From Candidatus Aenigmatarchaeota archaeon (GTDB lineage: Archaea > Aenigmatarchaeota > Aenigmatarchaeia > PWEA01), in contig JBKHHE010000004.1 of the NCBI GenBank assembly GCA_046539305.1, forward strand, positions 606 through 64,605: DNA of 64,000 bases. Direction: 5' to 3'. Numbering within the stretch: position 1 is the first letter of the stretch; each line of letters opens with the position of its first letter. The position numbers and the translations under genes were made by a program. The notes beneath the pieces were generated by a model that was not told where the DNA came from, did no database searches, and worked only from the letters and a program-made list of their open reading frames with translations. Shown here piece by piece: positions 4,742-31,792 of this stretch.

Positions 4742-5142
4742 TGAAGGTAGAAGGTAGGGGTGTGACAGAAGGAAAAGCGGAAGGTGAAGTTTTGATTTCC
4801 GAGGAGCCGATAGGCTTCTACGGAGCGGTTGATATAGATACTGGGGAGTTTATCGAAGAGGGACACGAGCTCGAAGGGGAAAATATCTCGGGCAAGGTCC
4901 TGGTTTTCCCTAAGGGAAAGGGTTCTACGGTCGGTTCCTACGTACTTTACGGGCTTGCGAAGAACGGTGAGGCTCCCGCGGCCGTGGTCAACAAAGAAAC
5001 GGAAACGATAGTCGCGACCGGTTGTATACTCGGCGAGATACCATGTGTGGACAGACTTGATTCAAACCCCGTGGAGACCCTGAAAGAGGGAGATAGCGTC
5101 AAAGTAAATGCAGATGACGGACTCGTGACGGTGAGAGGATGA
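4741..5142 (+). CDS. aconitase-X swivel-domain protein (DUF126); candidate phosphomevalonate dehydratase small subunit
   Basis: ATG overlaps the upstream TGA (TGATG). 133 aa. PIGFYGAVDIDTGEF and GKGSTVGSYVLYGLAKNGEAPAA blocks are typical of DUF126. Confidence 0.7.
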   Translation: MKVEGRGVTEGKAEGEVLISEEPIGFYGAVDIDTGEFIEEGHELEGENISGKVLVFPKGKGSTVGSYVLYGLAKNGEAPAAVVNKETETIVATGCILGEIPCVDRLDSNPVETLKEGDSVKVNADDGLVTVRG

Positions 5143-5921
5143 AAGGACTCAAGATGCTCAAGATAGGAGGATCGGTAATTACGGAGAAGGATAAAGATGA
5201 ACCCTCGCCTGACATACAAAACATGGAAAGGGTGGCCGAGGAGATAAGCAAGGGTTTGGAAGACAGTACAGGACTTGTTCTTATACACGGTGCAGGAAGT
5301 TATGGACATCCTATCGTGAAAAGAACGGAGATACATAAAGGTCTCGAGACTGATGAGGACAAGGTCAACTTTGCCAAGACACAGCGCCTTCAAAATGAAC
5401 TCAACTCGATATTTACTCAGAAATTGATAGAAGAAGACTTGCCTGCTTTTCCCGTTCAGGCTTCGGCCTCCGCAGTGATGGATGATAGACTTAAAAAGAT
5501 GAACGTGGAAGTCGTAAGAAAACTGGTTGGAATCGGTGTAATTCCTGTTCTATACGGTGTCCCTGCTTACGACGAAAATAAGGGCTGCTCCATTCTTTCC
5601 GGGGACGAAATAATGCCTTATCTCGCCGATAGGCTCGGAGTCGACACTGTTCTCCATGGCACTAACGTGGACGGTATTTATACTTCCGACCCCCGGAAAA
5701 GCGAGGATGCTGAACTTATAAGAAAGTTAGAGTCGTGGGAGCAAGTCGAAGAATATTTAGGAGACAGCAAGGATACTGATGTGACGGGAGGAATGTTGAA
5801 CAAGGTAAAAAAGATAATGGATGTGGGAGTTCGAGGGAGAATTTTCGATGTGTCCGAGGAAGGGAACCTTGAGAAAGTTCTTCGCGGAGAGGATATAGGC
5901 ACCCTGGTTGAAGGAGATTAA
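5139..5921 (+). CDS. isopentenyl phosphate kinase (amino-acid-kinase fold)
   Basis: KIGGSVITEK and IHGAGSYGH motifs. ATGA overlap with the upstream gene. Confidence 0.85.
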   Translation: MKGLKMLKIGGSVITEKDKDEPSPDIQNMERVAEEISKGLEDSTGLVLIHGAGSYGHPIVKRTEIHKGLETDEDKVNFAKTQRLQNELNSIFTQKLIEEDLPAFPVQASASAVMDDRLKKMNVEVVRKLVGIGVIPVLYGVPAYDENKGCSILSGDEIMPYLADRLGVDTVLHGTNVDGIYTSDPRKSEDAELIRKLESWEQVEEYLGDSKDTDVTGGMLNKVKKIMDVGVRGRIFDVSEEGNLEKVLRGEDIGTLVEGD

Positions 5922-5976
5922 ACGGAGAAGCAATAGGCCTCAATTTATATTTACCTCCGGTTCAAATATTATTCCT

Positions 5977-7638
5977 ATGAAATACTCCAAGCTCTGCGAC
6001 TACTACGAGCGGCTGGAAGGGACCACTAAAAACCTGGAGATGCGCGACATAGTCGCGGAGCTTCTGGAGGAAACATCCGAGGAGGACATAGAGCTTATAA
6101 CTCTGGCTTCGATGGGGAGGATTTTCCCTGCTTCCGTGAACAAGGATATAGGTATAGCCGGGAAGCTGATGCAGGACATTATCTCGAGGGCCTACGGAGT
6201 GAGCGAGGACGAGGTGGTCGAAAAGTTCAAGGAGACCGGCGACCTCGGCAAAGCTGCTGAACACTTCTGTGGTAACAGGAGACAGAGGAGCCTGATGGAA
6301 AAGGAACTGACGGTCAGGAACGTCTACGAGAACTTAAGGGAGCTTCCCGAGACCACGGGAAAGGGTTCCGAGAAGAGGAAGGAAGGTCTTGTAAAGGAAC
6401 TTCTTGTATCGGCGGAGCCCGTCGAGGCACGTTATATCGTGCGAACGACCCTGCAGGAGATGCGGATAGGTGTTGGTGAGGGTACGGTGAGGGACGCGAT
6501 AGCCGAGGCCTTCGAAGTTCCTGCAGAAAAAGTGGAAAACGCCTTCTTCAAACTAACCAACTACGGCGAGGTAGCGAGAATAGCCAAGAAGGAGGGCGGG
6601 AAGGGGCTGGAAGACGTGGGAGTTGAAGTTGGAAGGCCTCTAAGCGTGATGCTCGCCGAGATCTCCGAGGGGCTGGAGCAGGCGATGGATGAATACGAGA
6701 ACACGGCATTGGAGGTTAAATTAGATGGCTTCAGGGGACAGATCCACAAGGAGGGTGATGATATAACGCTTTTCTCACGTCGTCTGGAGGATAAGACGAG
6801 ACAGTTCCCGGAGGTGGTGGAATGGGCCAGGGAATGTCTGAAGGCGGAGGAGTGTATAGTCGACTGTGAGATAGTAGCGGTGGATGAAGACGGAAATCCT
6901 TTACCCTTCCAGAACCTGTCCAAGAGAATAGAGAGGAAGTACAACATCAAGGAAACGAGGAGGGAGATACCGGTTCAGGTTAACTGTTTCGACCTGTTTT
7001 ACGTGGAGGGTGAGAGCTTTATGGAGAAAAGCCTCAAGGAAAGGTGGAAAAGGCTTGAGGAAATAGTGGAGGAGAAGGACGGAAGGTTCAAGCTCGTGGA
7101 ACATATAGAGACGGGGGACATGGACAAGGCGAACCAGTTTTACCAGAAGGCGCTAAAGCAAAGCCAAGAGGGTATAATGGTGAAAAACCTGGATGCGAGA
7201 TATCAGCCAGGAAAGAGGGTCGGCTACTGGCAGAAGGTCAAGGAGACTATGGAACCTCTGGATCTGGTCATCGTAGAAGGAATATGGGGCGAGGGCAAGA
7301 GATCAAACTGGATCTCGTCTTTAATGCTTGCAGTCAGAAACCCGGATACCGGCGAGTTCCTAAAGACCGGGAAGATGGCCACAGGCATGACGGAGGAACA
7401 GCTGGAGGAGATTACTGAAAAGTTGCAGGAGTTGATCCTGAAAGAAGAGGGGAGAAGGATTATGGTAAAGCCGGAGATCGTGGTCGAAGTTGGGTATGAG
7501 GAAATTCAGGAAAGCCCGAAATATGAAACGGGCTACGCGCTGAGATTCCCGAGGCTCCTTCGCTTCAGGTCAAACAAAGGCCCGAAGGACGCCGACACGA
7601 TGGAAAGACTTAAAAATCTTTACGATAAGCAGAATTAA
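5977..7638 (+). CDS. lig: ATP-dependent DNA ligase
   Basis: Motif I KLDGFRGQIH, then EGIMVK and WQKVK. Start moved to ATG 5977 (MKYSKLCDYYERLE), about 30 nt downstream of TATA-like CAATTTATATTTACC. Confidence 0.9.
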   Translation: MKYSKLCDYYERLEGTTKNLEMRDIVAELLEETSEEDIELITLASMGRIFPASVNKDIGIAGKLMQDIISRAYGVSEDEVVEKFKETGDLGKAAEHFCGNRRQRSLMEKELTVRNVYENLRELPETTGKGSEKRKEGLVKELLVSAEPVEARYIVRTTLQEMRIGVGEGTVRDAIAEAFEVPAEKVENAFFKLTNYGEVARIAKKEGGKGLEDVGVEVGRPLSVMLAEISEGLEQAMDEYENTALEVKLDGFRGQIHKEGDDITLFSRRLEDKTRQFPEVVEWARECLKAEECIVDCEIVAVDEDGNPLPFQNLSKRIERKYNIKETRREIPVQVNCFDLFYVEGESFMEKSLKERWKRLEEIVEEKDGRFKLVEHIETGDMDKANQFYQKALKQSQEGIMVKNLDARYQPGKRVGYWQKVKETMEPLDLVIVEGIWGEGKRSNWISSLMLAVRNPDTGEFLKTGKMATGMTEEQLEEITEKLQELILKEEGRRIMVKPEIVVEVGYEEIQESPKYETGYALRFPRLLRFRSNKGPKDADTMERLKNLYDKQN

Positions 7639-7704
7639 TAGTTACTACAGATAAGTGAAAAATATTTAAATGTGTGGGACGCATAAAAGAATGGGTGTAA
7701 TAAT

Positions 7705-8523
7705 ATGGTTGCTTCCGAGGAAGTACTGGATCAGTTGAAGACCCTTGGACTTAACTCCTATCAGAGAAAGCTGTGGGCTGCACTTCTTTCCAATGGAGCT
7801 TCTACTGCCGGAGAACTTTCCGACATCTCGGATGTCCCGAGGAGCAGGACCTACGACGTTCTAGAAAGCCTTGAGGATTTAGGTCTCGTAAAAATACAGA
7901 CGGGTAAACCCATGAAATATCTTCCTGTGGATCCTGAAGAAGCTCTCGAAAGACTGAAGAAAAAACACAAGGAAGAGTACAAGGAGACGAAGAAGAAGAT
8001 CGACAGGTTTAAAGAGAGCGAAACGTTTGAGGAGTTAGATAAATTATACAACGGCGGTGTTGAGTCGACAGATCCTGGAGAGTTCTCAGGCGCTCTGAAG
8101 GGAAGATATCAGCTTCTTCAGCAACTTGAAACCATGTTCAAAAACTCCAAGGATAGGATACATGTCGTTACTTCCAAAGAAGGTATCAAGGAAATATACA
8201 ATAACCACGTCAACCATCTACAAGATGCCAGTGACAGGGGCGTTGATGTCAAAATAGCCGCGCCGATCAGTGATGAAGTAGAGGAGCTCGTGGATAAGCT
8301 TTCAGATTTTGCTGAAATCAGACATATTCCCGAAACCGAGGATTTCCTCGGAAGGTTTTCCGTAGTGGACGGTAATGAATTTGCCTTTGCTTTAACTCAT
8401 GAGGATGAGGTCCACCCCACACAGGACGTTTCTTTCTGGTCTCAGAGCGATCACGCCGCTGGGGACTTCCTGGAGCCACTTTTCCAGAACTACTGGGGGA
8501 ACCTTAAGGAGTGGAGTAGGTAG
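7705..8523 (+). CDS. TrmB-family transcriptional regulator
   Basis: N-terminal winged-helix LGLNSYQRKLWAALLSNGASTAGELSDISDVPRSRTYDVLESLEDLGLV, plus a TrmB-type C-terminal domain. Confidence 0.8.
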   Translation: MVASEEVLDQLKTLGLNSYQRKLWAALLSNGASTAGELSDISDVPRSRTYDVLESLEDLGLVKIQTGKPMKYLPVDPEEALERLKKKHKEEYKETKKKIDRFKESETFEELDKLYNGGVESTDPGEFSGALKGRYQLLQQLETMFKNSKDRIHVVTSKEGIKEIYNNHVNHLQDASDRGVDVKIAAPISDEVEELVDKLSDFAEIRHIPETEDFLGRFSVVDGNEFAFALTHEDEVHPTQDVSFWSQSDHAAGDFLEPLFQNYWGNLKEWSR

Positions 8524-8524
8524 T

Positions 8525-9397
8525 TTATCCGGCCAGTGCGTAGAGTTTGGGGAAGTCAGCCTCCGTTGCTTTAATAACTTTTTCCTGGGCAGTTTCCATT
8601 TCTCCTTCTGCTCCAAGAAGTATGTCGATCAGGCCTACAGTTTCCCTGTATTCATTGAGGGTAACATCCTCGTTGAGGAGATTTTTGAAGATTTCTTTGG
8701 CTTCTTTCCTTCCACCAAGCTGGTCAACAAGGCCGTATTCCTTGGCTTCTTCACCAAGGATTATTTGACCTCTGGACATCCCTTTAATATTCTCATCTGT
8801 TATGTTCCTGTTTTCTGCGACTGTCTCTATGAACTTGGAGTGAACCCCGTCGAGCATGTTTTGGAAAATTTCTCTCTCCTTTTCCGTGAGGTTTCTGTAC
8901 GGTGATCCCATGTCTTTGAGGTCGCCCTCTGCTAACCTCACGTATTCCACGCCGTACTCCTCCATCAGCTCCGAGTATTCAAGATAAGAGGAAGTCACTC
9001 CTATGCCCCCAGTCATGGTCAGGGGATCGGCGACTATCCTATCACATGCGGATGATGCCCAGTATGCTCCCGAGGTCGCGTAGTCCTGGAACTGACAGAC
9101 CGTAAATTCCTCCACATCGCTTATGACCTTTTCGAGCTGGCTGGAGGCAACAACAGTCCCTCCCGGGGAGTTTATCTGGAAGAGAAATCCTTCTGCGCCC
9201 TCCTTTCTGGCCTCCCCGATCCGGTCTTGGATAACTTCGGGAGATGCCTCCATGGATTGGGGTCCAATAGTCCCTCGGACCGGTATCACTGCTACTTCCG
9301 TTCCCCTCAACCTTTCGACAGGCGCAAAGGCCGCAAGAGCTGCAGTCAGTATTCCCACCAAGACCAGGAGCACGACAATTATCTTTCCTTTCTCCAT
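8525..9397 (-). CDS. sppA: signal peptide peptidase SppA (S49 family)
   Basis: N-terminal TM segment and S49-like blocks INSPGGTV and ATSGAYWASSACD. Confidence 0.8.
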   Translation of the reverse strand: MEKGKIIVVLLVLVGILTAALAAFAPVERLRGTEVAVIPVRGTIGPQSMEASPEVIQDRIGEARKEGAEGFLFQINSPGGTVVASSQLEKVISDVEEFTVCQFQDYATSGAYWASSACDRIVADPLTMTGGIGVTSSYLEYSELMEEYGVEYVRLAEGDLKDMGSPYRNLTEKEREIFQNMLDGVHSKFIETVAENRNITDENIKGMSRGQIILGEEAKEYGLVDQLGGRKEAKEIFKNLLNEDVTLNEYRETVGLIDILLGAEGEMETAQEKVIKATEADFPKLYALAG

Positions 9398-9431
9398 AAG
9401 ACATACTTTGAACTTCTGATTAATAAAAGAA

Positions 9432-11309
9432 CTATCCTACGAACTTTGGTCTTCGTGAGAGCTTCCTTGGGAGGGGAAGCGGCTTGTAGGGATAACCTTT
9501 TATCCTTTCTTTTATTTCCGCCAAGAGATCGCTGGCTTTCATTTTGACCTCTTCACCTTTCCTTCTTTTCCTCACTGAAAGCTTTTCTCCTCCCGCCTCC
9601 TTATCACCGACTACAAGCGTATATGGAATCCACTCTGTTTCAGCCCTCCTTATCCTCCAGCCGACGGACTCGTTCCTGTCGTCTACGTCCACTCTTATGT
9701 CTTCATCCTCGAGTTTCTCACATAGTTCCATGCAGTAGTCCATGTGCTTCTCCGGGCTCACAGGGATTATCCTAACTTGGGTGGGTGAAAGCCATAGAGG
9801 AAGGACGGCGTTTTCTCTTCCCTCTCTTATTGCATCCTCAAGCAGGAAGGTCAGCGTCCTCTCTATAGAGCCGAAAGTGGAGCAGTGAAGTATGGTGCAC
9901 GGGTGTTCCTTGTTATCCTTTCCGGTATAAGTTATATTGAACCTCTCGCCGTTCACCAGGTCCATCTGAACCGTGGATATCTGCGTCTCCATCCCGTTGG
10001 GATGGATACCTTCGAAGTCCAGTTTCATGGAGTAGTAATGGGTCCTCTCGTCTGAGAGCTGGACTATTGCGGGAACTCCCAGTTCCTTTGTCAACTCCTT
10101 CATCCATTCTTTATTCTCCTTCCAGTATTCTTTCGTTCCCTCCCAGTCCAGGACCCAGTCACCCTTGCTTATTATAGACTCCATGATGTCCTTGCAGATG
10201 TGCGCGAGCTCCTCGAACTCTTCCTTCGCCCCTTCTTCGTCGGCGGTGAATACATGGTTGTCCGTCATTGTAAAGTTTCTTACTCTGCGCAGTCCGGTCA
10301 GCTCGCCCTTCTGTTCCTTCCTGAAGCAGAAGGCCTCCTCATACTGTTTCAGTGGGAGGTTCTTGTAGCTTATGCCCAGGTTCTGGGCATATGGGAACTG
10401 ACCAGGGTCGGAGGCAGGCCTCATTGCGAGCTTGGTCCCGTCTTCGTCCCAGGAGTATATCTTCTCCTGGAACTCGCCCATCAGCTTGTTTATCCTCTCA
10501 TCATTCAGTCTGTACATTAGAGGGTTCTGTATCTTGTAGGCTCCGTAGTCCCTGACCAAATCGTCTTGGTAGTCCAGGATAAGTTCTCTGATAAGGACGC
10601 CCTTGGGATGCCACTTCATATGTCCAGAATCGCTCACGTTGCAGTAATCCACCAGCGCCAGGTCTCTCATTATCTCTATATGCGGGGGTTCGTCCCTATC
10701 CTCGGATTCGGCTATCTCACACTCTACGAATCTTTTAAGGTTTTTCCAGGCGCGCTCGTCCCTGTTCAGAAGTTCGTTTTCTCGCCAATCTTTCCTGGTT
10801 ATCTCGTGCTCATTTCCTTCAGTATCTATCATGAAGAAGGTAGAGAACTCTTCACCTTCCTTCCTTTCCTTTGCAGGACCTCCTCCTTCTCCGCTAGGCC
10901 TCACTTCCCTGCTCAGCTCCGAGAGCGGATGTCCCTTCACGTGGATCTCGAACTCCTTGTACCAGCCGAAGGGCGCCCTCGTGACCTCGAAGTCTCCTTC
11001 CAACCCCTCCTCCAGCATCTCCTGACTCTTCCTGGCTTCGTCCAAGCCTCCCGGCTTGGAAGTTAGATGCACCCAGGGGTATATGACAACCTTTTCCGTG
11101 TCCACCTGGTCTATCACGTCCCTTATCTCCTCTCCGGCTCTTTCAACGACGTGGTCGAGGTCCTCTCCATCGCCTTCCTCCAGGGCGTTGAAAACCACGA
11201 GGCACTTCTCCACCCTCCTCTTCCCGTCTTCGTACTCCTCCGCACTGTCTACAGCCTTCTTGTGCGGCTCGAACTCCAGGTGGCTCGAATGCAGCAGCAA
11301 CAACTTCAT
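9432..11309 (-). CDS. thrS: threonyl-tRNA synthetase, archaeal type with N-terminal editing domain
   Basis: 625 aa. N-terminus MKLLLLHSSHLEFEP is typical of the archaeal ThrRS editing domain. Class II core and C-terminal anticodon-binding domain present. Confidence 0.9.
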   Translation of the reverse strand: MKLLLLHSSHLEFEPHKKAVDSAEEYEDGKRRVEKCLVVFNALEEGDGEDLDHVVERAGEEIRDVIDQVDTEKVVIYPWVHLTSKPGGLDEARKSQEMLEEGLEGDFEVTRAPFGWYKEFEIHVKGHPLSELSREVRPSGEGGGPAKERKEGEEFSTFFMIDTEGNEHEITRKDWRENELLNRDERAWKNLKRFVECEIAESEDRDEPPHIEIMRDLALVDYCNVSDSGHMKWHPKGVLIRELILDYQDDLVRDYGAYKIQNPLMYRLNDERINKLMGEFQEKIYSWDEDGTKLAMRPASDPGQFPYAQNLGISYKNLPLKQYEEAFCFRKEQKGELTGLRRVRNFTMTDNHVFTADEEGAKEEFEELAHICKDIMESIISKGDWVLDWEGTKEYWKENKEWMKELTKELGVPAIVQLSDERTHYYSMKLDFEGIHPNGMETQISTVQMDLVNGERFNITYTGKDNKEHPCTILHCSTFGSIERTLTFLLEDAIREGRENAVLPLWLSPTQVRIIPVSPEKHMDYCMELCEKLEDEDIRVDVDDRNESVGWRIRRAETEWIPYTLVVGDKEAGGEKLSVRKRRKGEEVKMKASDLLAEIKERIKGYPYKPLPLPRKLSRRPKFVG

Positions 11310-11509
11310 ATAAACAACCCCTTATACTGAGGTTCGAGAAGGTTTATAATTCTTATGCATTTCCGTCTAGAAAAGGTCTTCTCAGGCTGTAAAACGTCCA
11401 CCGGACCGGTGCCTCATCTCCCATCACTGAATTTATATTTTTGATTGGAACTTAAATAATTTCCCCTGATTGGTGGATAGGTCGGAGACAATGCCTAACA
11501 TTTAAATAG

Positions 11510-11518
11510 TAGTTACTA
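11510..11518. promoter_or_regulatory. palindromic TAGTTACTA site between the TATA box and the start of gene 11532
   Basis: TAGT-N-ACTA inverted repeat directly after CATTTAAATAG. The same arrangement occurs at 60634..60642. Confidence 0.4.
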
Positions 11519-11531
11519 TAAAGTAATAAAT

Positions 11532-12116
11532 ATGAAGCAAGAGAATCCAGACCTTCTTAAAAGGGGCATGAAGCTACCCTCCAAAGGTACCGGACATACT
11601 CTGGAGATTGGCGGATTTGATGGAGAGTTCCGGGATTTTTACCAAGAATTTTCTGAGTATGTAGAAAGGAAGACTGGGAAGGAATTGCCTGAAGATATTC
11701 TTGAAAGGAAAAAAGAGATTCAAGAAATGCCTGACGGCAAAAAAGCGGGGCTTGCCTGCCGTTTCGTAAACGAAAAAATAGATTATGATCTGAACTATGT
11801 TAATGGAAAGGATATCATCAGTACTTCTGAGGTTATAGAAAGGGGTCGGGGGGTTTGTAAAGAATATGCTGCGACTCTAAAGATGCTTTATCAGATGATG
11901 GGTGTAGAGTCGGAATACGTAAGAGGCAGGATGCCCAATGGAAATGGTGACAGAGAGGGGCACGCTGTAGTTAAGGCACACCTTGATGACTATCCTGCAT
12001 CCGACGAAGTACTTGCTGATCCTACGAACGGAAGATTCGGCAAATACGAAAGTGTTTCAGAGCGCATGGACTTTGAAGAAGGAACCAGCCTTGTGAAATA
12101 TCCCAACAATTCCTAG
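11532..12116 (+). CDS. transglutaminase-like cysteine protease-fold protein
   Basis: GVCKEYA (Cys), GHAVVKA (His) and a downstream Asp give a transglutaminase-core-like triad. Confidence 0.6.
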   Translation: MKQENPDLLKRGMKLPSKGTGHTLEIGGFDGEFRDFYQEFSEYVERKTGKELPEDILERKKEIQEMPDGKKAGLACRFVNEKIDYDLNYVNGKDIISTSEVIERGRGVCKEYAATLKMLYQMMGVESEYVRGRMPNGNGDREGHAVVKAHLDDYPASDEVLADPTNGRFGKYESVSERMDFEEGTSLVKYPNNS

Positions 12117-12123
12117 CCTTATT

Positions 12124-12573
12124 TTACTCTTCATTTAGGTAGAGCGCTTTCTCTTTGAAGTCCCTCGGAGCGTCCTGGATCAGCCTAAGCTTCAGCTCAT
12201 GGGGGAGTATCGTGTAGTCCTCCAAATCGTCTACGGGCACGAACCTCGCGTCCTTGAGAATCTCTTTCCCGTCCTCTGCCTCTGGGTCCTCGCCCAGCTC
12301 TACCTCCCCACCTTCGTACTCGCACAGGAAGAAGAACTCCATATGGTGCTTCGTCCCGCCGAAGAAGTCGTGGTAGTACACCGGCCTCTTTACACTCACG
12401 TCCACGTCCGTCTCCTCCTTGACTTCCCTGGCAACGGCTTTGTGTATCCTTTCTTCGGGCTCCACGGCTCCGCCGGGTGGTATCCAGTAGGACATGTTGC
12501 CCTGCTCGTGCTTCACAAGAAGAAGCGAGTTCTTCTTCGGCACTATGGCTGCGGCGCGAGGTATAAGTTCCAT
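12124..12573 (-). CDS. NUDIX hydrolase
   Basis: Nudix box GGAVEPEERIHKAVAREVKEETDV. Confidence 0.85.
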   Translation of the reverse strand: MELIPRAAAIVPKKNSLLLVKHEQGNMSYWIPPGGAVEPEERIHKAVAREVKEETDVDVSVKRPVYYHDFFGGTKHHMEFFFLCEYEGGEVELGEDPEAEDGKEILKDARFVPVDDLEDYTILPHELKLRLIQDAPRDFKEKALYLNEE

Positions 12574-12596
12574 GTTTCAAACAAGCCCTTCTTCAG

Positions 12597-12611
12597 TTAA
12601 ATATTTTTAAG
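12597..12611. promoter_or_regulatory. shared AT-rich TATA element (TTAAATATTTTTAAG)
   Basis: Lies about 30 nt from the NUDIX ATG (12573, minus strand) and about 30 nt upstream of tRNA-Gln position 1 (12637, plus strand). Confidence 0.45.
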
Positions 12612-12636
12612 CCTTACAAAGAAGATTGTTACGGGT

Positions 12637-12891
12637 AGCCCGGTAGTCTAGCCACCTTTTACTCGCTTTTTGGGAACCTGGTTCCCAGACTTGGAAGCTT
12701 GCGCTTCCAAGACGCTCGCAAAACGTGGGCGAAAAGTAAGGTGGGGCAACGGTCAAGGATGTCGGGTTTTGGACACCGCTCGTCCAAAACGTTGAGGCGA
12801 CGATGAGAAAAACCCGGCGACCCAGGTTCGAAGGAAACCTTTAGAAAAGGTTTCATCCAAACTAAGGGTTCCGGAAATCCTGGCCGGGCTA
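12637..12891 (+). tRNA. tRNA-Gln(UUG) with three introns (12652..12749, 12773..12811, 12833..12877); CCA not encoded
   Basis: Hand fold: the spliced 73-nt product is a canonical cloverleaf. It has the A1:U72 pair, A73, U8, A14, G18G19, U33, anticodon UUG and T-loop UUCGAAU. All three insertions sit in bulge-helix-bulge geometry. Confidence 0.82.
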
Positions 12892-13009
12892 TCCCTTATT
12901 TCCTTTAAGTTTTCAAGGCGTGCCGATTTAATCCAGGGTCAAAAATTTCGTGAAGTTTAACAGCTCTATCGTTTTTAACTTTATAAAACTCTGGAGAGAA
13001 GTTTAACAC

Positions 13010-13237
13010 ATGGACTTCGAGGACTTCATGAACTGGTTGAAGGGCGAAAACAGAAGAGAGATGGTGGAAAACTTCTCCTACCTGCTGATAGTGGTTGCCG
13101 CCGTTTTGACTGTGATTGGTCTCGGAGCTGGGACGTTCGTTTCAGGACTACCGGTTCTGATGGCGATAATCGGGGCCTTCCTGGCTCTGGTTGGAATAGT
13201 CCTCTACATAGTTTCGGAGTTCCTCAGGATTCTCTAG
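13010..13237 (+). CDS. small membrane protein (2 TM)
   Basis: 75 aa with two hydrophobic helices. TATA-like TTTATAAAAC upstream. Confidence 0.5.
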   Translation: MDFEDFMNWLKGENRREMVENFSYLLIVVAAVLTVIGLGAGTFVSGLPVLMAIIGAFLALVGIVLYIVSEFLRIL

Positions 13238-13250
13238 AAAGGGTACCACG

Positions 13251-13688
13251 TTAATAGAGCCCTTCAAGGTACTCTTCGATTTCCTCTAATCTCTCTTTTC
13301 CGACCCCCGAAGGAAGCTCCCCTCTGGTGAGTGAGTCGCGCAGCAGCAGGACGTTCGTGAAACTTTTCCCTTCGGTGAATTCAAGTTCTTCTCTGTTGAT
13401 AAGGCGGAGCGGTTTCTCGGCCATGGTGACCATGCCCAGATCGTGCAAGCTCCCCCTACTCTTTTCGTTCCAGTATACGTGGACCTCGTCAGCCCTTTTC
13501 AACCCCTCCTTGTTTTCAAGGCAGATATTCAGGCCGTAGGGGTCGCTTTGATCCGTGTCCTCGGGAGGATAATACACCTCATGGCCCGTCTCCTCCAGAC
13601 TTTCCTTGTAGCTTTCTATCTCCTTCTTTTCCTCCTCGGAGAGATCCCTGACGGGACAGACGAGAAAGATATTTTTACCCTCGGCCAT
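13251..13688 (-). CDS. hypothetical protein, possibly nucleoside 2-deoxyribosyltransferase-like fold
   Basis: 145 aa. N-terminal IFLVCPVR beta-strand/loop, then ADEVHVYW...GSLHDLGM. The family assignment is from memory only. Confidence 0.35.
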   Translation of the reverse strand: MAEGKNIFLVCPVRDLSEEEKKEIESYKESLEETGHEVYYPPEDTDQSDPYGLNICLENKEGLKRADEVHVYWNEKSRGSLHDLGMVTMAEKPLRLINREELEFTEGKSFTNVLLLRDSLTRGELPSGVGKERLEEIEEYLEGLY

Positions 13689-13757
13689 GTCTCTAGACTC
13701 TGTGGAAAACTTTAAATACCTTTAGCCTGAAAAATTGTGCGTTGAACCTGTGATACG

Positions 13758-14210
13758 ATGGCACGGATGTATTCGAGGAAACACGGAAAGTCCGGCTCCA
13801 CCAGGCCCGCCAGAGACGAGCCACCCGAGTGGGTGGAGATGGACCTTGAAGAAATAGAACAGAAGGTCGTGGAGCTGGCCGATGAAGGTATAGAACCGTC
13901 TGAGATAGGCGAAGTTCTCAGGGACCGGTACGGTGTTCCCTCCGTCAAGGACTTCGGGAAGAGCGTGACCGAGATTCTGGAGGAGAACAATGTGGAACCC
14001 GAGATTCCCGAGGACCTGAGAAACCTGGTGAAGAAGGCCAGAAAGATAAGGGAGCATCTTGGAGATCAGCCCAGGGACGCATCCGCTATCCACGGCCTGG
14101 AGCAGACTGAATCCAAGATAAGGAGGCTTGCGAAGTACTACAAGAAGGAAGGAAAGATTCCACAGGACTGGGAACACGAGACCAAGGAAGAGTTCCACAA
14201 GAGGGAGTAG
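13758..14210 (+). CDS. rps15: 30S ribosomal protein S15 (uS15)
   Basis: MARMYSRKHGKSGSTRP N-terminus and archaeal S15 length. Confidence 0.9.
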   Translation: MARMYSRKHGKSGSTRPARDEPPEWVEMDLEEIEQKVVELADEGIEPSEIGEVLRDRYGVPSVKDFGKSVTEILEENNVEPEIPEDLRNLVKKARKIREHLGDQPRDASAIHGLEQTESKIRRLAKYYKKEGKIPQDWEHETKEEFHKRE

Positions 14211-14230
14211 TTTTTCTTTTAGGGATAGAT

Positions 14231-15592
14231 ATGAAGATACCTGGAGAGCTTGAGGAGCTGTTAGAGGAATCAAGGGAGAAGTTTCAGGAGATGGAAAAGG
14301 TCAGAATAGTCTCACATTACGACGCCGACGGTATTTCTTCCGCTGCTATTGCTCTGGCCGCTGCTCTGCGGGAAGGAAAGAAGGTCCACCATACCGTGGT
14401 CAAGCAGCTGCGTCCTGAAACCATGGAGAGGTTCGAGCACGAGGAGAACCTCCTCTTCACGGACCTGGGCTCCGGCCACCTATCCTTGATCAATGAGCTG
14501 GACTCGGAGAACATGATAGTTCTGGATCACCATCACCTGTCAGGAGAGCTGGAAAACGGAGTCCACGTGAATCCTCACCTTGCGGGGATGGAGGAGGATA
14601 CGGTCTCGGGGGCTGGCGTGACCTACCTTTTTGCCCGGACATTAGATGAGGACAACGTAGACCTTTCCTCGCTTGCAGTCGTCGGCGCTATAGGCGACAT
14701 ACAGGAAGAGAACTGGAGGATGAAGGGGCTAAACGAAAAAATAATGGAGGAGGCCGTAGAGGTCGGTGTCCTGGAAAAAGGTGAAGGACTGCGTCTATTC
14801 GGGAGGCTTTCCAGGCCTGTACACAAGGCACTTGAGTACACCACGAACCCCTATATACCTGAGGTCTCCGAGAGCGAGTCCGGCGCGGTGCAGTTTCTGT
14901 CGAGCCTGGACATAGATCTCAAGAACGGCGATGGCTCCTGGAAAAAACTCGTCGACCTGAGTGAGGATGAGAAGAAAGAGCTCGCCTCGGCGATAGTCAA
15001 GAAGAGAGCGAGGAACGGCGTGGACGATGCAGGAGAGATATTCGGAAGTACCTATACACTCCCGCGATTTGACGGAAGGTTCAGAGATGCAAGGGAGCTG
15101 TCTACAGCGCTAAACGCCTGTGGCAGGATGGAGCGGGCCGACGTAGGTATTCTTGCGTGTCTGGGCAGTGCTCGTGCAAAGGAGAAGTTGGAGCAGGTAG
15201 TCCAGGGGTACAGAAAAACTCTTGGGAAACTTATAAGCATGGTCAGAGGGAACGAAGATATGCTTGAAGAAAGGTCTGGTTTTAATCTCCTAGACGGCAC
15301 TGAAGAGATACCGGAGAACTTCGTTGGTACTATATGCTCGATTCTCCAGTCCGATCTTTCCCCGGACAAGATGCTAGTAGGGCTTGCGGAGTCCGAAAAC
15401 GAGAGGTTGAAGGTCTCGATAAGGGCCCCCGACGACTCGGAGATCAAAGTCAATGAAGTAATTGAGGGTGTTTCCGAGGAGATGGATATCGAGGGTGGGG
15501 GACATGAAAAAGCCGGGGGAGCCTACATTCATATGGAGCACAGGGGGGAGTTCCTCGAGGCTCTGGAAAGGGAACTTTCCGGTTCTCCGTGA
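14231..15592 (+). CDS. DHH-family phosphoesterase, archaeal RecJ/GAN-like
   Basis: DHH motifs HYDADGISS, LDHHH and GGGHEKAGG. Confidence 0.8.
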   Translation: MKIPGELEELLEESREKFQEMEKVRIVSHYDADGISSAAIALAAALREGKKVHHTVVKQLRPETMERFEHEENLLFTDLGSGHLSLINELDSENMIVLDHHHLSGELENGVHVNPHLAGMEEDTVSGAGVTYLFARTLDEDNVDLSSLAVVGAIGDIQEENWRMKGLNEKIMEEAVEVGVLEKGEGLRLFGRLSRPVHKALEYTTNPYIPEVSESESGAVQFLSSLDIDLKNGDGSWKKLVDLSEDEKKELASAIVKKRARNGVDDAGEIFGSTYTLPRFDGRFRDARELSTALNACGRMERADVGILACLGSARAKEKLEQVVQGYRKTLGKLISMVRGNEDMLEERSGFNLLDGTEEIPENFVGTICSILQSDLSPDKMLVGLAESENERLKVSIRAPDDSEIKVNEVIEGVSEEMDIEGGGHEKAGGAYIHMEHRGEFLEALERELSGSP

Positions 15593-15641
15593 TTCTCTGT
15601 AAATCTTTTTAAATGTTAACCCAAAAGTATGTGAGGAAACT

Positions 15642-16202
15642 ATGTCGAAGAGCAGCCAGTTAAAAGGGAAGAAATGGTACACTTTGAAGGCACCGGAGAT
15701 GTTCGGGGGCAAGGAAATTGGCGAGGCTCCCGCACAGACCGATGAGGAGTTAAGAGGGAAGACCGTTTCTCTCGGGGCCACGGAACTACATGGAAGCTCG
15801 AACAAGTACTACTTCAAGATAAATCTAAGAGTTGACAAGGTGGAGGGCGATACGGCCAGGTGCAAGTTCATAGGCCACGATTGTTCCAGAGATTTCATAA
15901 CTAGAATTGTTCGGAAGGGCAGCAAGAGGGTAGACGAAATAACTGAGGTAGAGACCAGTGATGGCGTAGAAATGAGAGTTAAAACTATATGTGCAACCAT
16001 AAAATCCGTGGGAGCTTCTACGCAGACCGCGATTAGGAAGAAGATCGACGAAATTTTGGAAGAGCAGGCTTCCCAAATGAGTTGCGAGGATTTTTTCAAG
16101 GACATTTTAATGGACAGGCTCCAGAAAAAGGTAAAAAAGAAAGTGGACAAGATATATCCGCTTCGCGAGATAGAGTTCAGGAAGACGGAAGTAGTCGAAT
16201 AA
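15642..16202 (+). CDS. rps3ae: 30S ribosomal protein S3Ae (eS1)
   Basis: KGKKWYTLKAPEMFG signature, 186 aa. Confidence 0.9.
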   Translation: MSKSSQLKGKKWYTLKAPEMFGGKEIGEAPAQTDEELRGKTVSLGATELHGSSNKYYFKINLRVDKVEGDTARCKFIGHDCSRDFITRIVRKGSKRVDEITEVETSDGVEMRVKTICATIKSVGASTQTAIRKKIDEILEEQASQMSCEDFFKDILMDRLQKKVKKKVDKIYPLREIEFRKTEVVE

Positions 16203-16291
16203 ATCCACGATTAAGTTTAGTTCTTTTAGAATTCTTATTCCACTTGGGAAGGTGCTTAGTATAATTTAAGTGTTGGGGATAAAACATAAAC

Positions 16292-16678
16292 ATGTCGGGA
16301 GAAGGTTCCTACGATCCCTGGTATGAGGCAGTTTATTCGGGAGAAGATCCTGAGATAGTTCCTGAAATTTACTCGCCCGGGGACATGGTCAGGAACCTGG
16401 TCAAAAACTATCTGGACCTGAAGAGGTACCATGGACCTTGCTCCGATTTCAAGAAGGAAAACTTTACCGAATACTACATATCCAGGGACAAGAGAGTCTT
16501 GCTTAGGTTGTCTGATAAGGGGCGTCCGGCCGTAAGAACAGAAGAGTTAACGGTCGAGTTTGACAGCCTGGAGTCCTTTCTGTCAAAAATAAACAAAGGT
16601 ATGATGAGAGATATTAGAAATGGGGAGTTAGATAACCTGGATATAAGTGAGATGGCTCTGAATAAAACACAGGAATAG
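16292..16678 (+). CDS. hypothetical protein
   Basis: 128-aa ORF with the proteome-typical acidic composition. No recognised motif. Confidence 0.5.
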   Translation: MSGEGSYDPWYEAVYSGEDPEIVPEIYSPGDMVRNLVKNYLDLKRYHGPCSDFKKENFTEYYISRDKRVLLRLSDKGRPAVRTEELTVEFDSLESFLSKINKGMMRDIRNGELDNLDISEMALNKTQE

Positions 16679-16743
16679 ACGTTTCTACAGTCCGGTAAAT
16701 TTTTTAAAGGTCGAAATCAACTTTCTTTAGGTGGTGATAAATA

Positions 16744-17040
16744 ATGAGCGCTGCAGCTAAACTCGTGCTTGGCGTTATTTTAGTTTTGGTAGGCCTCTGG
16801 CTCCTGCTACCGGCGGGCGCCGTAGAGAACGTAAAGCCCGAAGAAGGAGTATCCGCCGAACTGGACTGGTGGAAACCCTTCAAGACAGTTGTTACGGGTA
16901 TGATTCCGCCCGTTCTGATAGTGATTGGGGCCCTGGTGGTCTGGATCGAGGCCGAAGAGATGAAGGCGCCTGAAGTCCCTGAGATCGAAGAGGACTTCGA
17001 CATCGAGGAAGAAGTTGAAAAGGAAGGCGAAGAGGAGTAA
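16744..17040 (+). CDS. small membrane protein with acidic C-terminal tail
   Basis: Two TM helices followed by an EEDFDIEEEVEKEGEEE tail. Confidence 0.5.
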   Translation: MSAAAKLVLGVILVLVGLWLLLPAGAVENVKPEEGVSAELDWWKPFKTVVTGMIPPVLIVIGALVVWIEAEEMKAPEVPEIEEDFDIEEEVEKEGEEE

Positions 17041-17062
17041 ACCCCTCCGTATTTTTTATTTT

Positions 17063-18244
17063 TCAGGTTAGGATTTTTATAATGTCGCCGTTCTCTAGAG
17101 TGTGGTCTGCACCTATTTTTCTTCCGGAGCGACAGTCAACCGCTCCTATAAATTCTTCGCCTATGTCGCTGTGGACTTCGTACGCTAAATCCTCCGCTGT
17201 GGAGCCTCTTTCTAGGAGAACGGCATCGGGGAGCACATTCCCCTTCTTGTCGGTGTAGTTGTTCTCGTTTTCTACAGGATAGACCACGATCATGTCCAGA
17301 AGGTCGAAAACAGCCCTGTTCAGGACTTCCTGGATGCCTGTGGAACCGTATTCCTCCAGTATTTTTTCAGCGAACTCCAGTGCCTTGGCCTGCTCCTGAG
17401 AAAGACCCTCTTCCTCCAGTACCTCAAAGCTATCCACACCGGGCACGTATCTGACCTTGCTCTGATTAGATGCCTTCCGCAGCGCGAGCTCAACCTCGGC
17501 ACAGCACGGGATCACATCCATCTCCGTTTTTGACTCGACTTCCTTCAGCTTTTCCTCCGCACCTTCTAGATCTATCTTGTTTGCGGCCACTATCATCGGT
17601 TTTGTCCTTTTTCTCAGCTCCGTCGCAAAACTTTCGATAGCCCTTTCGCTCCAGTTTCCGGGACTGTTCGCGTCCAGTTCCAGCTTGTTCACAACTTTCC
17701 TTATATCTTCTCTGTCTATTTTCAGGCCGGAGAAGCGCGACAGCAGCTGTTCTTCGAAGTCCTTGTCCTCCATCTCCACGCTCGAGGAAAACTTCTTCCA
17801 CTCCCGTTTGAAGATGTCCTTGTACCAGAAGTCCAGTTCTTTCTCCAGAAACTCTATGTTTTCGTAGGGATCGTAGCCCTCTGTTGGCTCGCCTTCCGCA
17901 TCCGTCCTTCCGGAAACGTCCAGGACGTGTATCAGGACGTCCGCCTCCCGAAGGTCGTCCAGAAACTGGTTCCCCAGACCCCGACCCTCGTGTGCGTCAG
18001 GGACCAGCCCAGCGACGTCGAGCATCTTCACGGGAACGAACCTCGTGCCGTCCACGCACTTTCCGTTTGGGTCGCAGGAAACGTTCAACTCCTCGCACGG
18101 GCAGGGAACTGTGACATATCCTACGCCACGGTTCGCCTCTATCGTGGTGAAAGGATAGCTATTTATCTCCACGTCCGCGAGCGTGACCGCCTTCATGAAG
18201 GTGCTCTTTCCGGTGTTCGGCGCGCCCACAAGCCCGACCTGCAT
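17063..18244 (-). CDS. Obg/YchF/DRG-family GTPase with C-terminal TGS domain
   Basis: Start moved to MQVGLVGAPNTGKST (P-loop). DVAGLV G3 motif, NKID G4 motif, and a TGS-like C-terminus. Confidence 0.8.
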   Translation of the reverse strand: MQVGLVGAPNTGKSTFMKAVTLADVEINSYPFTTIEANRGVGYVTVPCPCEELNVSCDPNGKCVDGTRFVPVKMLDVAGLVPDAHEGRGLGNQFLDDLREADVLIHVLDVSGRTDAEGEPTEGYDPYENIEFLEKELDFWYKDIFKREWKKFSSSVEMEDKDFEEQLLSRFSGLKIDREDIRKVVNKLELDANSPGNWSERAIESFATELRKRTKPMIVAANKIDLEGAEEKLKEVESKTEMDVIPCCAEVELALRKASNQSKVRYVPGVDSFEVLEEEGLSQEQAKALEFAEKILEEYGSTGIQEVLNRAVFDLLDMIVVYPVENENNYTDKKGNVLPDAVLLERGSTAEDLAYEVHSDIGEEFIGAVDCRSGRKIGADHTLENGDIIKILT

Positions 18245-18361
18245 GGTTAAGATTTTTAAGAGGAGGTATATAAAATCATGAGGAGTTAAAACTCGCGATG
18301 GACTTGTAACTTTAAAAGTCTTGGAACTCAATACATATAGGATTTCAAGGACTGTGATACA

Positions 18362-18868
18362 ATGAAGGCGGCGATATGTGAGGTATGTCTGAAGAACGAC
18401 ATGCTCTGCGAGGGCTGTTCCAAGAAGCTGGAAGAGGGAGAAATATCGGAAAGGGCTGTGGAGATCTCCAAGTATCTTTATTCTCTGACGGATGATTATC
18501 CCTATCTGGAGGACGTGGAGATAAGCGAGATATATATCGGTGAAGACGTCATAATAATAGTTGCGTCCGAGGACGATGTCGGCAGGGTGGTGGGGAAGGG
18601 TGGCGAAGTTGTAAAGGAGCTTGCAAGCGAGTTCAAAAGGGCTATCCGTGTGGTAGAGTCCAGCGAGGATGTGAAAAAGTTTGCCAGGAACCTGCTTCCT
18701 GATGTCAAGGTCTACGGCGTGAACAAGGTTTTCTCACCGGAGGAAGACTATTACAGGATCGTGGTCGATTCGGAGGACAAGAACAGGATAATGTTGAAGG
18801 AGGAGGAGTTGTCCGAGGTCATGGAAAGGATAACCGGCGAGAAGGCCAGGATTTCTTTCAGGTCCTAG
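18362..18868 (+). CDS. KH-domain RNA-binding protein with N-terminal Cys4 zinc ribbon (NusA-like)
   Basis: CEVC...CEGC N-terminus and KH GxxG motif VGKGGEVVKEL. Confidence 0.6.
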   Translation: MKAAICEVCLKNDMLCEGCSKKLEEGEISERAVEISKYLYSLTDDYPYLEDVEISEIYIGEDVIIIVASEDDVGRVVGKGGEVVKELASEFKRAIRVVESSEDVKKFARNLLPDVKVYGVNKVFSPEEDYYRIVVDSEDKNRIMLKEEELSEVMERITGEKARISFRS

Positions 18869-18931
18869 GCTTGTACCTGAGTAGCTAAAGTTTTAAACTT
18901 CTGGAACTAATTATGGACTGGTGACATTTTA

Positions 18932-19261
18932 ATGGTTTATACGACTTCGCTCGTCAGTTTTCTGACGGGGCTCGTGGTTTCTGCGATCATAATTTATTTT
19001 GTAAGTTCCGCCTTCGGGAAGAAGAGGGGATTGAAGACGGCATTTCTGGCCGCTGCTGCAGGCTCGATAATATACACCCTGTCCTCTATATACATAAGCG
19101 TAGGTCTTGTCGCGACTTTTGTTGGCGGAGTTGTCTGGCTTTTTGCCCTTAAGCACTTCTACGGAATAGGCTGGCTCAAGGCTCTGCTGATAGCCGTCTT
19201 CATATGGGCCGCGGCCAATATAGTCAACACCTTCCTTCCTACGGTCGCAGGTCCTTTGTGA
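18932..19261 (+). CDS. membrane protein (3-4 TM)
   Basis: 109 aa, hydrophobic throughout. Confidence 0.5.
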   Translation: MVYTTSLVSFLTGLVVSAIIIYFVSSAFGKKRGLKTAFLAAAAGSIIYTLSSIYISVGLVATFVGGVVWLFALKHFYGIGWLKALLIAVFIWAAANIVNTFLPTVAGPL

Positions 19262-19376
19262 AAAACATTGCTTAGCCCTTCAGTCAAAACCGAGGGATTG
19301 GGCCATACCTTTAAATATTTTAAGGGTCAGATATGTCTTGAACCTTACTATAAATAACTGCAAAGGGGGTGAAATT

Positions 19377-19505
19377 TTGATCGAAGAAAAATATGAAGGC
19401 CGAAATATACCCTCTTCCACCGACGGGAGGAATGGGCCTGTCTTCAATGTCCATCATGAAGTCGCGAGGAACATGAAAGAATACAAGAACGGAAATCTAA
19501 AGTGA
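19377..19505 (+). CDS. candidate micro-ORF (42 aa, TTG start)
   Basis: TATA-like CTTTAAATATTTTAAG at 19309-19324. Shine-Dalgarno-like GGGGGTGA lies 4 nt upstream of the TTG. A T6 run follows the stop. An alternative 27-aa ATG frame (19392) and an antisense 34-aa ORF compete with it. Confidence 0.25.
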   Translation: MIEEKYEGRNIPSSTDGRNGPVFNVHHEVARNMKEYKNGNLK

Positions 19506-19629
19506 ACGGTAGCATACCGTTTTTTCCTTCTTCGACCTGCATACCCATAGTTTTACAGGTCTTGTCTATTTGAAACTGCTTAGTAGTAACATTTAAATAT
19601 CAGGAGAACAAATAACTAAACGTGATATT

Positions 19630-19743
19630 ATGAATATAGATGAATATAGGAATAGAAACGATGAAGAAATAGACAACATCGGGTACCTCGAGAGTTTCAA
19701 GAAGGAACCCGGACCGGACAACGATCCCCTCGCTATGGACTAA
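19630..19743 (+). CDS. candidate micro-ORF (37 aa, acidic)
   Basis: ATG lies about 30 nt downstream of CATTTAAATATC. Followed by a hairpin and T-runs. Confidence 0.3.
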   Translation: MNIDEYRNRNDEEIDNIGYLESFKKEPGPDNDPLAMD

Positions 19744-19768
19744 TCTAACTTTTAGGAACATCGTCTTT

Positions 19769-19816
19769 GGGGACGGAAAGGAGGGGGTTTCCGACGCCCC
19801 CTTTACTTTTCTTTTC
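19769..19816 (+). terminator. GC hairpin plus T-rich tract
   Basis: GGGG-A-CGGAAA-[GGAGGGGG]-UUUCCG-ACG-CCCC followed by TTTACTTTTCTTTTC. Confidence 0.4.
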
Positions 19817-19879
19817 AGCCTCCCGGGCCCGGTTTTTACTTTCACCATCTTTATAAAATTCTAGTTCGAAGAAACTACC

Positions 19880-25484: not shown

Positions 25485-25537
25485 GACAAGTTTTAAATAT
25501 AAGGAGTTGTAACTATTAGGTGGTAAAGGGTGTTGCA

Positions 25538-31665: not shown

Positions 31666-31710
31666 TGGCGAGTTCAGCAGGATTTGAACCTGCGGTCTTC
31701 TTCAGGGGTG
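31666..31710 (-). tRNA. orphan tRNA 3' fragment or half (T-arm, 3' acceptor strand, G73, encoded CCA)
   Basis: Minus strand reads GCAGG-UUCAAAU-CCUGC-UGAACUC-G-CCA. No complementary 5' acceptor strand (GAGUUCA) lies within about 300 nt on either side. Confidence 0.5.
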
Positions 31711-31792
31711 GATTTATTTCTCTGCTCACCTTCGTCTTTTTTATTCACTTAAACAAAAACTTTATAAAGTTTAGTTTACATACATAAAAACC

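Follow-up and report, generated by a model that had tools for sequence, protein, structure and literature searches.

A tRNA-Gln(UUG) gene of Candidatus Aenigmatarchaeota that appears to carry three bulge-helix-bulge introns

Can a 255-nt stretch of archaeal DNA in which standard tRNA finders see nothing be a working gene for tRNA-Gln(UUG)? The stretch in question, positions 12637-12891 (+), lies in a 64-kb piece (the window) of contig JBKHHE010000004.1, and a sequence-only reading had proposed that it holds a tRNA-Gln(UUG) gene broken by introns at sites 15/16, 37/38 and 59/60. We conclude with high confidence that this is a functional tRNA-Gln(UUG) gene of Candidatus Aenigmatarchaeota, a lineage of the DPANN archaea, and that its three insertions are introns of the bulge-helix-bulge (BHB) type that would be spliced by protein. 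The gene is divided as follows, and its spliced form is the reference for all identity counts among relatives.

12637..12651, + strand: exon 1, with the acceptor 5' strand, U8, A9, the D-stem 5' strand, A14 and G15
12652..12749, + strand: intron 1, 98 nt, site 15/16, with a relaxed HBh' motif
12750..12772, + strand: exon 2, with the remaining D loop (C16, G18G19), the D-stem 3' strand, the anticodon-stem 5' strand, U32 U33 and G37
12769-12771, + strand: anticodon UUG, within exon 2
12773..12811, + strand: intron 2, 39 nt, canonical site 37/38, with a strict hBHBh' motif
12812..12832, + strand: exon 3, with A38, the anticodon-stem 3' strand, the variable loop with C48, the T-stem 5' strand and T-loop positions 54-59
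12833..12877, + strand: intron 3, 45 nt, T-loop site 59/60, with a strict hBHBh' motif
12878..12891, + strand: exon 4, with U60, the T-stem 3' strand, the acceptor 3' strand and the discriminator A73
Junctions of the predicted mature RNA: GTAGTCTAG joined to CGGTCAAGG; GTTTTGG joined to ACCCGGC (shorter form of GGGTTTTGG joined to ACCCGGCG); GGTTCGAA joined to TCCTGGCC

Joined in silico, the four exons (15, 23, 21 and 14 nt) give base for base the 73-mer that had been proposed, and recomputing the intron load returns the claimed figure, with 98 + 39 + 45 nt, or 182 of 255 nt, removed. ARAGORN labels this 73-mer tRNA-Gln(ttg), in agreement with the identity first assigned to it, and folds it as a regular cloverleaf with an acceptor stem of 7 bp, a D stem of 4 bp, an anticodon stem of 5-6 bp and a T stem of 5 bp. 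The T loop reads UUCGAAU, and the conserved bases that had been listed (U8, A14, G15, G18G19, U33, A1:U72 and A73) can all be seen by direct reading. No open reading frame (ORF) of at least 80 aa overlaps the locus. A split or permuted tRNA gene was ruled out, since the four exons follow one another in order on the same strand, inside 255 nt and downstream of one conserved promoter.

Do the insertions have the form that an archaeal splicing endonuclease would cut? In the BHB arrangement as tested here, the 5' bulge consists of the last two exon bases and the first intron base, the 3' bulge of the last two intron bases and the first exon base, and 4 bp lie between them. All four central pairs are present at each of the three introns, which bears out the geometry that had been claimed. 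At 15/16, GUCU (12646-12649) pairs with GGGC (12744-12747), the bulges are AG^C (12650-12652; the caret marks the cut) and AA^C (12748-12750), and an inner helix of 6 bp (12653-12658 with 12738-12743) stands against an outer helix of 0 bp. Since the outer helix is absent, this intron is of the relaxed HBh' kind, just as the sequence-only reading had it. At 37/38, UUUU (12767-12770) pairs with AGAA (12806-12809) between bulges GG^A (12771-12773) and AA^A (12810-12812); the outer helix is the anticodon stem plus continuing pairs, counted as 7 bp, and the inner helix has just 2 bp before a mismatch, a small correction to the earlier description. At 59/60, UUCG (12827-12830) pairs with CGGA (12872-12875), the bulges are AA^G (12831-12833) and AA^U (12876-12878), and the 5-bp T stem is the outer helix. 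The inner GAA/UUC helix that had been named at this site is indeed there, with its 3 bp, and is not the whole of it: 7 further pairs follow past a bulged A.

Motifs of this kind are easily found when the junctions are left free. Of 24,612 position pairs in the locus, 98 pass a loose BHB filter (a central helix of 4 bp and at least 2 bp of inner helix), so many that the BHB motif alone is not specific, and the weight of the argument is in the coincidence of BHBs with the very junctions that restore a perfect tRNA. With the junctions fixed and 20,000 shuffles per intron, the observed central plus inner pairing was reached in fractions of 0.00015, 0.013 and 0.0012 for introns 1, 2 and 3, which gives a joint probability of ~2e-9 for the three BHBs. 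The minimum free energy (MFE) of the precursor is -110.7 kcal/mol (z = -5.3 versus dinucleotide shuffles). Each intron forms a separate domain in the MFE fold, where the 9-bp hairpin reported earlier at 12690-12711 is also present. Intron 1 holds an extra two-hairpin module (~12667-12711, ~44 nt) that is absent from most relatives, and copies of its two hairpins were found nowhere else in the window.

Further evidence comes from related DNA. The exon-3 21-mer was used as an exact-match query against genome and metagenome collections and yielded 8 genome loci and 8 metagenome loci; identity in exon 3 among the retrieved genes is by construction, because that exon was the search pattern. One metagenome match, L020, was rejected as a chance occurrence in coding DNA. 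Counting the window, there are 11 distinct versions of the gene, of which 10 are interrupted and one, in the outgroup L015, is uninterrupted. The scans gave one tRNA-Gln per contig, interrupted on all contigs of the close clade and uninterrupted in L015 only. In two relatives whose threonyl-tRNA synthetase (ThrRS) is 73-74% identical to that of the window, the gene keeps its place beside NUDIX and ThrRS and consists of the same exons 1-4. Among close relatives in general, the ThrRS is 73-76% identical where it is known, while in loci L004-L010 (59-61%) the NUDIX/tRNA-Gln neighbourhood has been lost, so that synteny holds to ~73% only.

Exons and introns have fared very differently among these relatives. 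Once spliced, the genes of the nine close relatives depart from the window gene at 1-2 of 73 positions (C/U16, C/U32) and are thus 97-99% identical to it; exon 1 is free of differences in 9/9, and the variation in exon 2 is confined to positions 16 and 32. The introns are 51-76% identical with many length changes, apart from intron 1 compared with the 100-nt intron 1 of L016 (90%) and intron 2 compared with the much longer L013 intron (34%), and the 3' flank diverges as the introns do. Six distinct relatives carry a homologous intron 1 of 54-61 nt (range over L001, L002, L017, L011, L013, L014 and L022), and a core CCACC...CGTGGGCGAAAAG...GGTGGG is conserved in the intron 1 of nine sequences. 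The 59/60 intron is present in 10/10 interrupted versions at lengths of 10-54 nt, and five of the six pairs of its inner helix show changes on both sides. In an alignment registered on the proposed splice sites, and hence one that favours the proposed structure, 88.4% of cells pair, against 33-57% when the partners are slid by 1-3 columns, and nine pairs have changed on both sides, a number reached in 0/500 shuffles. The single most telling covariation lies in the central helix at 37/38, where C32:G(intron) in 10/10 relatives has become U32:A in the window, a compensatory double change.

An uninterrupted counterpart exists as well. The outgroup metagenome-assembled genome (MAG) 'archaeon GMC4' (L015 5665-5737) holds the same tRNA-Gln(UUG) without introns, beside a tRNA-Glu gene, and there it is found by ARAGORN and scores 62.9 bits with the Rfam tRNA model against a threshold of 29. 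It matches the spliced window gene at 65 of 73 positions, with compensatory changes in the acceptor and D stems among the differences. The A1:U72 pair, A73, the anticodon arm and the T arm are common to both products, and the introns are in the window only.

Several points speak against reading this locus as a working, spliced gene. The window stands alone against its nine close relatives in having no encoded CCA and in carrying U32 for C32; these two features could be read as early drift, though U32 is compensated in the intron. Splicing is deduced from DNA sequence rather than from observed RNA. A second, uninterrupted tRNA-Gln(UUG) may exist elsewhere in the genome, since the scans of this organism's own genome covered the window. 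The unconstrained MFE fold partly absorbs the bulges, and imposing all three BHBs costs 13 kcal/mol, which we take to be usual for a motif recognized by protein. Registering the alignment on the splice sites tilts the pair counts towards the proposed structure. Finally, EndA (tRNA_int_endo), RtcB and GatDE are all missing from the proteins of the window covered by precomputed Pfam hits (genes called in the NCBI copy of 4259-21309) and by Pfam scans of the other ORFs of at least 90 aa. With no EndA in the window, the requirement for such an enzyme rests on the literature.

How do other accounts of the same DNA compare? Chance could in principle produce a cloverleaf from three freely chosen deletions in structured intergenic DNA, and the 98 of 24,612 position pairs that pass the loose filter might encourage that thought, but the resulting 73-mer shares 65 of 73 bases with an uninterrupted tRNA-Gln of 62.9 bits, its four exon blocks recur in ten independent sequences, and the joint shuffle probability is ~2e-9. 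On the comparative sequence evidence this explanation can be called refuted already, and we give it practically no weight. A subtler possibility is a decaying pseudogene, never spliced, whose function is carried by a separate intact gene. The lack of an encoded CCA and the U32 that set the window apart from nine relatives would suit such decay, and the searches of the organism's own genome covered the window. Decay would hardly leave exons 97-99% identical to those of nine relatives whose ThrRS proteins have diverged to 73-76%, while introns and 3' flank change; nor does it fit insertions that retain BHB pairing with compensatory changes, a conserved promoter, or exon-3 scans that find one tRNA-Gln per contig, interrupted throughout the close clade. 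On these comparative data chance is excluded and a pseudogene is highly improbable.

If the gene is real, it might still have another intron map: intron 1 could be a nested or adjacent pair, a boundary could be off by one base, or the introns could splice themselves. The boundary at 15/16 is in fact ambiguous by one base, as AG^C...AA^C and AGC^...AAC^ yield the same mature RNA; relatives do contain a second D-loop intron, and intron 1 of the window has a ~44-nt extra module compared with most of them. The BHB register nevertheless sets the cuts at 12651/12652 and 12749/12750, and the extra module lies inside the intron, where its separate excision is unnecessary, so that we regard a different map as improbable. 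The core of a group I or II ribozyme takes hundreds of nucleotides, and a C/D-box small RNA is marked by C and D boxes with a k-turn. Self-splicing is opposed by the absence of any Rfam ribozyme at E up to 5 and by intron lengths of 39-98 nt, far below group I/II size. Self-splicing or C/D-box introns were accordingly rejected on size and on the absence of an Rfam match. We therefore retain the gene with three protein-spliced introns at the sites given above.

A further proposal would add to this reading rather than replace it, namely that the introns are kept for a function, whether against integration, as guides of intron-dependent modification or as stable circular RNAs. Randau and Soll have proposed that introns disrupt the tRNA as an integration target for mobile elements (reviewed in PMC4090602). 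Consistent with a function, four sites are occupied in several lineages, the intron-1 core is conserved across nine sequences, and an orphan tRNA-like 3' piece in the window fits, without proving, pressure from tRNA-targeting elements. Yet the presence, length and sequence of the introns vary freely among close relatives, down to the absence of the 15/16 intron in L018, a pattern that is better matched by neutral gain, loss and growth. The introns match no C/D-box or other Rfam family, and ~300 kb of related DNA contains no copies of them elsewhere. We consider a retained function unlikely.

The gene is invisible to the usual tools, as the sequence-only reading had anticipated: ARAGORN is blank on the unspliced locus and on the whole window, and so is the Rfam tRNA model, which gives no match in the 64 kb either at the gathering threshold or at E up to 5. 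Neither program matches the interrupted gene in any of 9/9 interrupted relatives, L018 and L023 included. Nor does Rfam, at either of these cut-offs, find a ribozyme, a C/D-box or any other family within 12637-12891. A scan of the window and all loci for a T arm with an acceptor pair gave no further full tRNA and one orphan 3' piece only, and no other disrupted tRNA was recognized by eye in the large intergenic gaps of the window. If the gene were overlooked, the genome would appear to have no tRNA-Gln(UUG). In L002 (1284-1469, -), a metagenome gene caller placed a 61-aa ORF on the 3' part of the tRNA-Gln gene, a spurious call made because the tRNA was missed.

Two flanking elements were read:

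12596..12613, + strand: TATA/BRE-like promoter GTTAAATATTTTTAAGCC, ~24-41 nt upstream of tRNA position 1
12892..12915, + strand: T-rich trailer TCCCTTATTTCCTTTAAGTTTTC, read from sequence

By its position and conservation, the upstream element looks like an archaeal promoter with a TATA box and a B recognition element (BRE). In 9/9 close relatives the core ATTTTTAAGC precedes the gene without a change, and in most of them the whole block is almost unaltered; the block (G)TTAAATATTTTTAAGCC is kept while the DNA farther upstream diverges. The core has its sole exact match in the window here, and a search of the window for a second promoter-like ATTTTTAAGC site, which might point to hidden RNA genes, gave one other match only, inside a P-type ATPase gene. 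Downstream, oligo-T tracts being the usual terminators of archaea, the trailer can be taken as a probable transcription stop. A scan for a bacterial-type terminator at 12892..12915 gave nothing, and bacterial promoter and terminator models are uninformative for an archaeon. The window has UCC (TCC in DNA, 12892-12894) after A73, where CCA is encoded in 9/9 close relatives, so that its tRNA-Gln would depend on CCA addition. A 472-aa NTP_transf_2 protein (25520-26938, +) is a candidate CCA-adding enzyme; no NCBIfam cca model matched it.

How might the mature tRNA be made? From the established archaeal pathway we infer transcription, cleavage, ligation, the order of the steps and the type of each enzyme. 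Transcription would start from the conserved TATA-like box at 12596-12613, and a short leader would be trimmed by RNase P. EndA would then cleave inside the six 3-nt bulges, with the native anticodon and T stems serving as outer helices at 37/38 and 59/60, and an RtcB-type ligase would join the four exons. The 15/16 intron uses the D-stem 5' strand as its central helix, so the D arm could form only after excision, and its missing outer helix predicts an enzyme able to cut relaxed motifs. The gene, in other words, implies a splicing endonuclease tolerant of a motif without an outer helix. Once the 3' trailer had been removed, CCA would be added. The 73-nt tRNA might finally be charged by the indirect route, through Glu-tRNA-Gln and then GatDE. 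For this route, tRNA-Gln is identified by the anticodon UUG or CUG, A1:U72 and A73. The anticodon UUG, A1:U72 and A73 occur in the window and in all relatives, and the GatDE route fits because A1:U72 and A73 are present. A more distant Aenigmatarchaeota relative, L009 (ThrRS 59% identical), has GatD and GatE-like genes side by side.

The eleven versions also show how changeable this gene is. Four intron sites are in use in the clade, 15/16, 21/22, 37/38 and 59/60, each occupied in several lineages, and lengths range over 54-100 nt at 15/16, 37-86 nt at 37/38 and 10-54 nt at 59/60. In L018 1087..1272 (+), which equals L026, the 15/16 intron is absent and introns are found at 21/22, 37/38 and 59/60; the 21/22 intron of L018/L026 is a clean HBh' motif, with 20 nt inserted after A21, GGUC paired with GGCU, bulges AA^A and AA^G, and 4 inner bp. 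A gene that has 21/22 in place of 15/16 indicates that D-loop intron sites have been gained or lost among close relatives. Three versions add a 40-nt insertion at 21/22 to the 15/16 intron, namely L002 1592..1328 (-) (= L024), L017 2335..2599 (+) and L016 7801..7498 (-) (= L025). Here the insertion (GGTCAA^...GGTCAA^GG) is flanked by the repeat CGGTCAA, its centre pairs GGUC with GGUC, and its bulges are AA^A and AA^G. A 7-nt micro-exon, CGGTCAA, parts the two introns. This motif is relaxed, having an inner helix of 1 bp followed by an internal loop, and the 40-nt insertion recurs on five contigs of several assemblies. These three versions appear to carry four introns, with a parse less secure than that of the other introns.

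Sizes vary as much as sites. L023 1815..1696 (-) has two introns only; the one at 59/60 is a mini-intron of 10 nt, GCTATGAAAC, that lacks an inner helix. In L013 1518..1258 (-), the canonical 37/38 intron has grown to 86 nt by extra hairpins. The window and L016 have in common a ~100-nt 15/16 intron with the two-hairpin module, which the 54-61-nt versions do not have. When all intron variants were compared by BLAST with the window and with every locus (~300 kb of related DNA), no copies turned up outside tRNA-Gln genes, and hence no sign of intron transposition in the available DNA. The eleven versions form a natural series, in which sites are gained and lost, introns grow by hairpin modules and introns shrink to 10 nt, and which is good material on the origin and turnover of BHB introns. 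Beyond this, tRNA-Gln(UUG) of the soda-lake Aenigmatarchaeota clade may be a hotspot of intron turnover with four sites, in which sister genes exceed the three-intron maximum, a permissive endonuclease is at work and introns likewise hide many of the 'missing' DPANN tRNAs; we regard the chances for and against this wider picture as evenly balanced. Four introns in the sisters, if true, would lie above the stated maximum of three for archaeal tRNA genes, and the hotspot reading, if true, would give this DPANN lineage an endonuclease no less permissive than that of crenarchaea.

Where does the gene stand among known systems? Three introns is the most that published accounts give for one archaeal tRNA gene, the cases being mainly from Thermoproteales (PMC4033280; tRNAscan-SE 2.0 paper, PMC8450103), and 59/60 is listed among the known non-canonical intron positions (PMC4090602). 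The tie of such genes to broad-specificity endonucleases, asserted in the earlier reading, and the maximum of three introns agree with PMC4033280, PMC8450103 and PMC5829648. Our literature search found no description of tRNA introns in Aenigmatarchaeota, nor of four introns in an archaeal tRNA gene. The window gene is thus of a known type, at the known intron maximum, in a lineage where such genes had no earlier description, and is not categorically new. It shows that tRNA genes as intron-rich as any known occur in Aenigmatarchaeota and not just in the Thermoproteales, where they are best documented. The Thermoproteales (Pyrobaculum, Thermofilum and Caldivirga; Sugahara et al. 2008 via PMC4033280, PMC4090602 and PMC8450103) resemble the window in having up to three BHB or relaxed introns per gene, canonical 37/38 introns along with non-canonical ones that include 59/60, HBh' motifs at non-canonical sites, and genes that default finders miss. 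They are hyperthermophilic crenarchaea, whereas the window comes from the DPANN, from soda-lake sediment MAGs and with an acidic proteome. Intron 'transposition' between tRNA genes is on record for the Thermoproteales, in contrast to the DNA examined here, which gave no sign of it.

A parallel outside the archaea is tRNA-Ile(UAU) of the red alga Cyanidioschyzon merolae (PMC3728597, PMC9602550), with BHB introns in its D arm and T loop and at 37/38, the layout of the window gene. The algal gene is nuclear and eukaryotic and is processed by a different enzyme, and its D intron sits in the D stem rather than in the loop at 15/16. Its processing intermediates have been detected by RT-PCR and its splicing order is experimental, whereas the window gene is known from its DNA. 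Closer in descent are other DPANN of the same superphylum (ARMAN-2 with its epsilon2 EndA, Nanoarchaeum with split tRNAs, and alpha4 EndA with an L3 loop; PMC3488258, PMC5829648), in which non-canonical or multiple introns accompany EndA variants with specificity loops. The window gene is contiguous, neither split nor permuted, unlike the split tRNAs of Nanoarchaeum. DPANN tRNA disruption has been linked to EndA variants with specificity loops, and the incomplete tRNA sets of DPANN genomes point to undetected disrupted genes (PMC5829648). Aenigmatarchaeota lie outside the genome set analysed in that study (PMC5829648), and the window gene is a concrete example of its prediction of undetected disrupted tRNA genes in DPANN.

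The assignment to this lineage comes from the neighbourhood. The ThrRS encoded 1.3 kb from the tRNA-Gln gene matches, at 100% identity, a protein from an NCBI MAG named 'Candidatus Aenigmatarchaeota archaeon', and the same locus is also present on GCA_046545755.1, contig JBKGZB010000005.1. That contig (63,180 nt) stops at about window position 4259 where the window runs on, and the window therefore comes from a longer version of it; a 67.5-kb contig (L027) of another assembly has the same genes. The proteins encoded in the window are very acidic. The related contigs belong to the T1Sed10 and B1Sed10 MAGs or to JGI 'SL_..._SED' samples, sources that we read as soda-lake sediments.

Three minor observations concern other parts of the window. 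The orphan tRNA-like 3' piece lies at 31712..31666 (-) and reads GAAGA AGACC GCAGG TTCAAAT CCTGC TGAACTC G CCA, and so comprises a T arm, the 3' strand of an acceptor stem, G73 and an encoded CCA. The window yielded neither a matching 5' half nor a second copy nor a complementary leader for it. It adjoins an AAA/DUF815-like ATPase gene (30623-31462, -), and in L028 and L030 the slot is empty or otherwise filled and the piece is absent; most likely it is an att-like insertion remnant rather than a split-tRNA gene. A conserved non-coding block, GTAAAACGTCCACCGGAC...CCTCAT, stands upstream of the ThrRS gene at window ~11385-11430; it occurs again by the tRNA-Gln promoter in L013 and may be a ThrRS leader or regulatory element. 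Lastly, a palindromic TATA box CTTTATAAAG at window 31761-31770 lies ~25 nt before the ATG of a conserved protein of 128-129 aa and unknown function (ORF129) that precedes CDC48. The box is conserved upstream of ORF129 in relatives L028-L031, and its placement suggests a leaderless operon.

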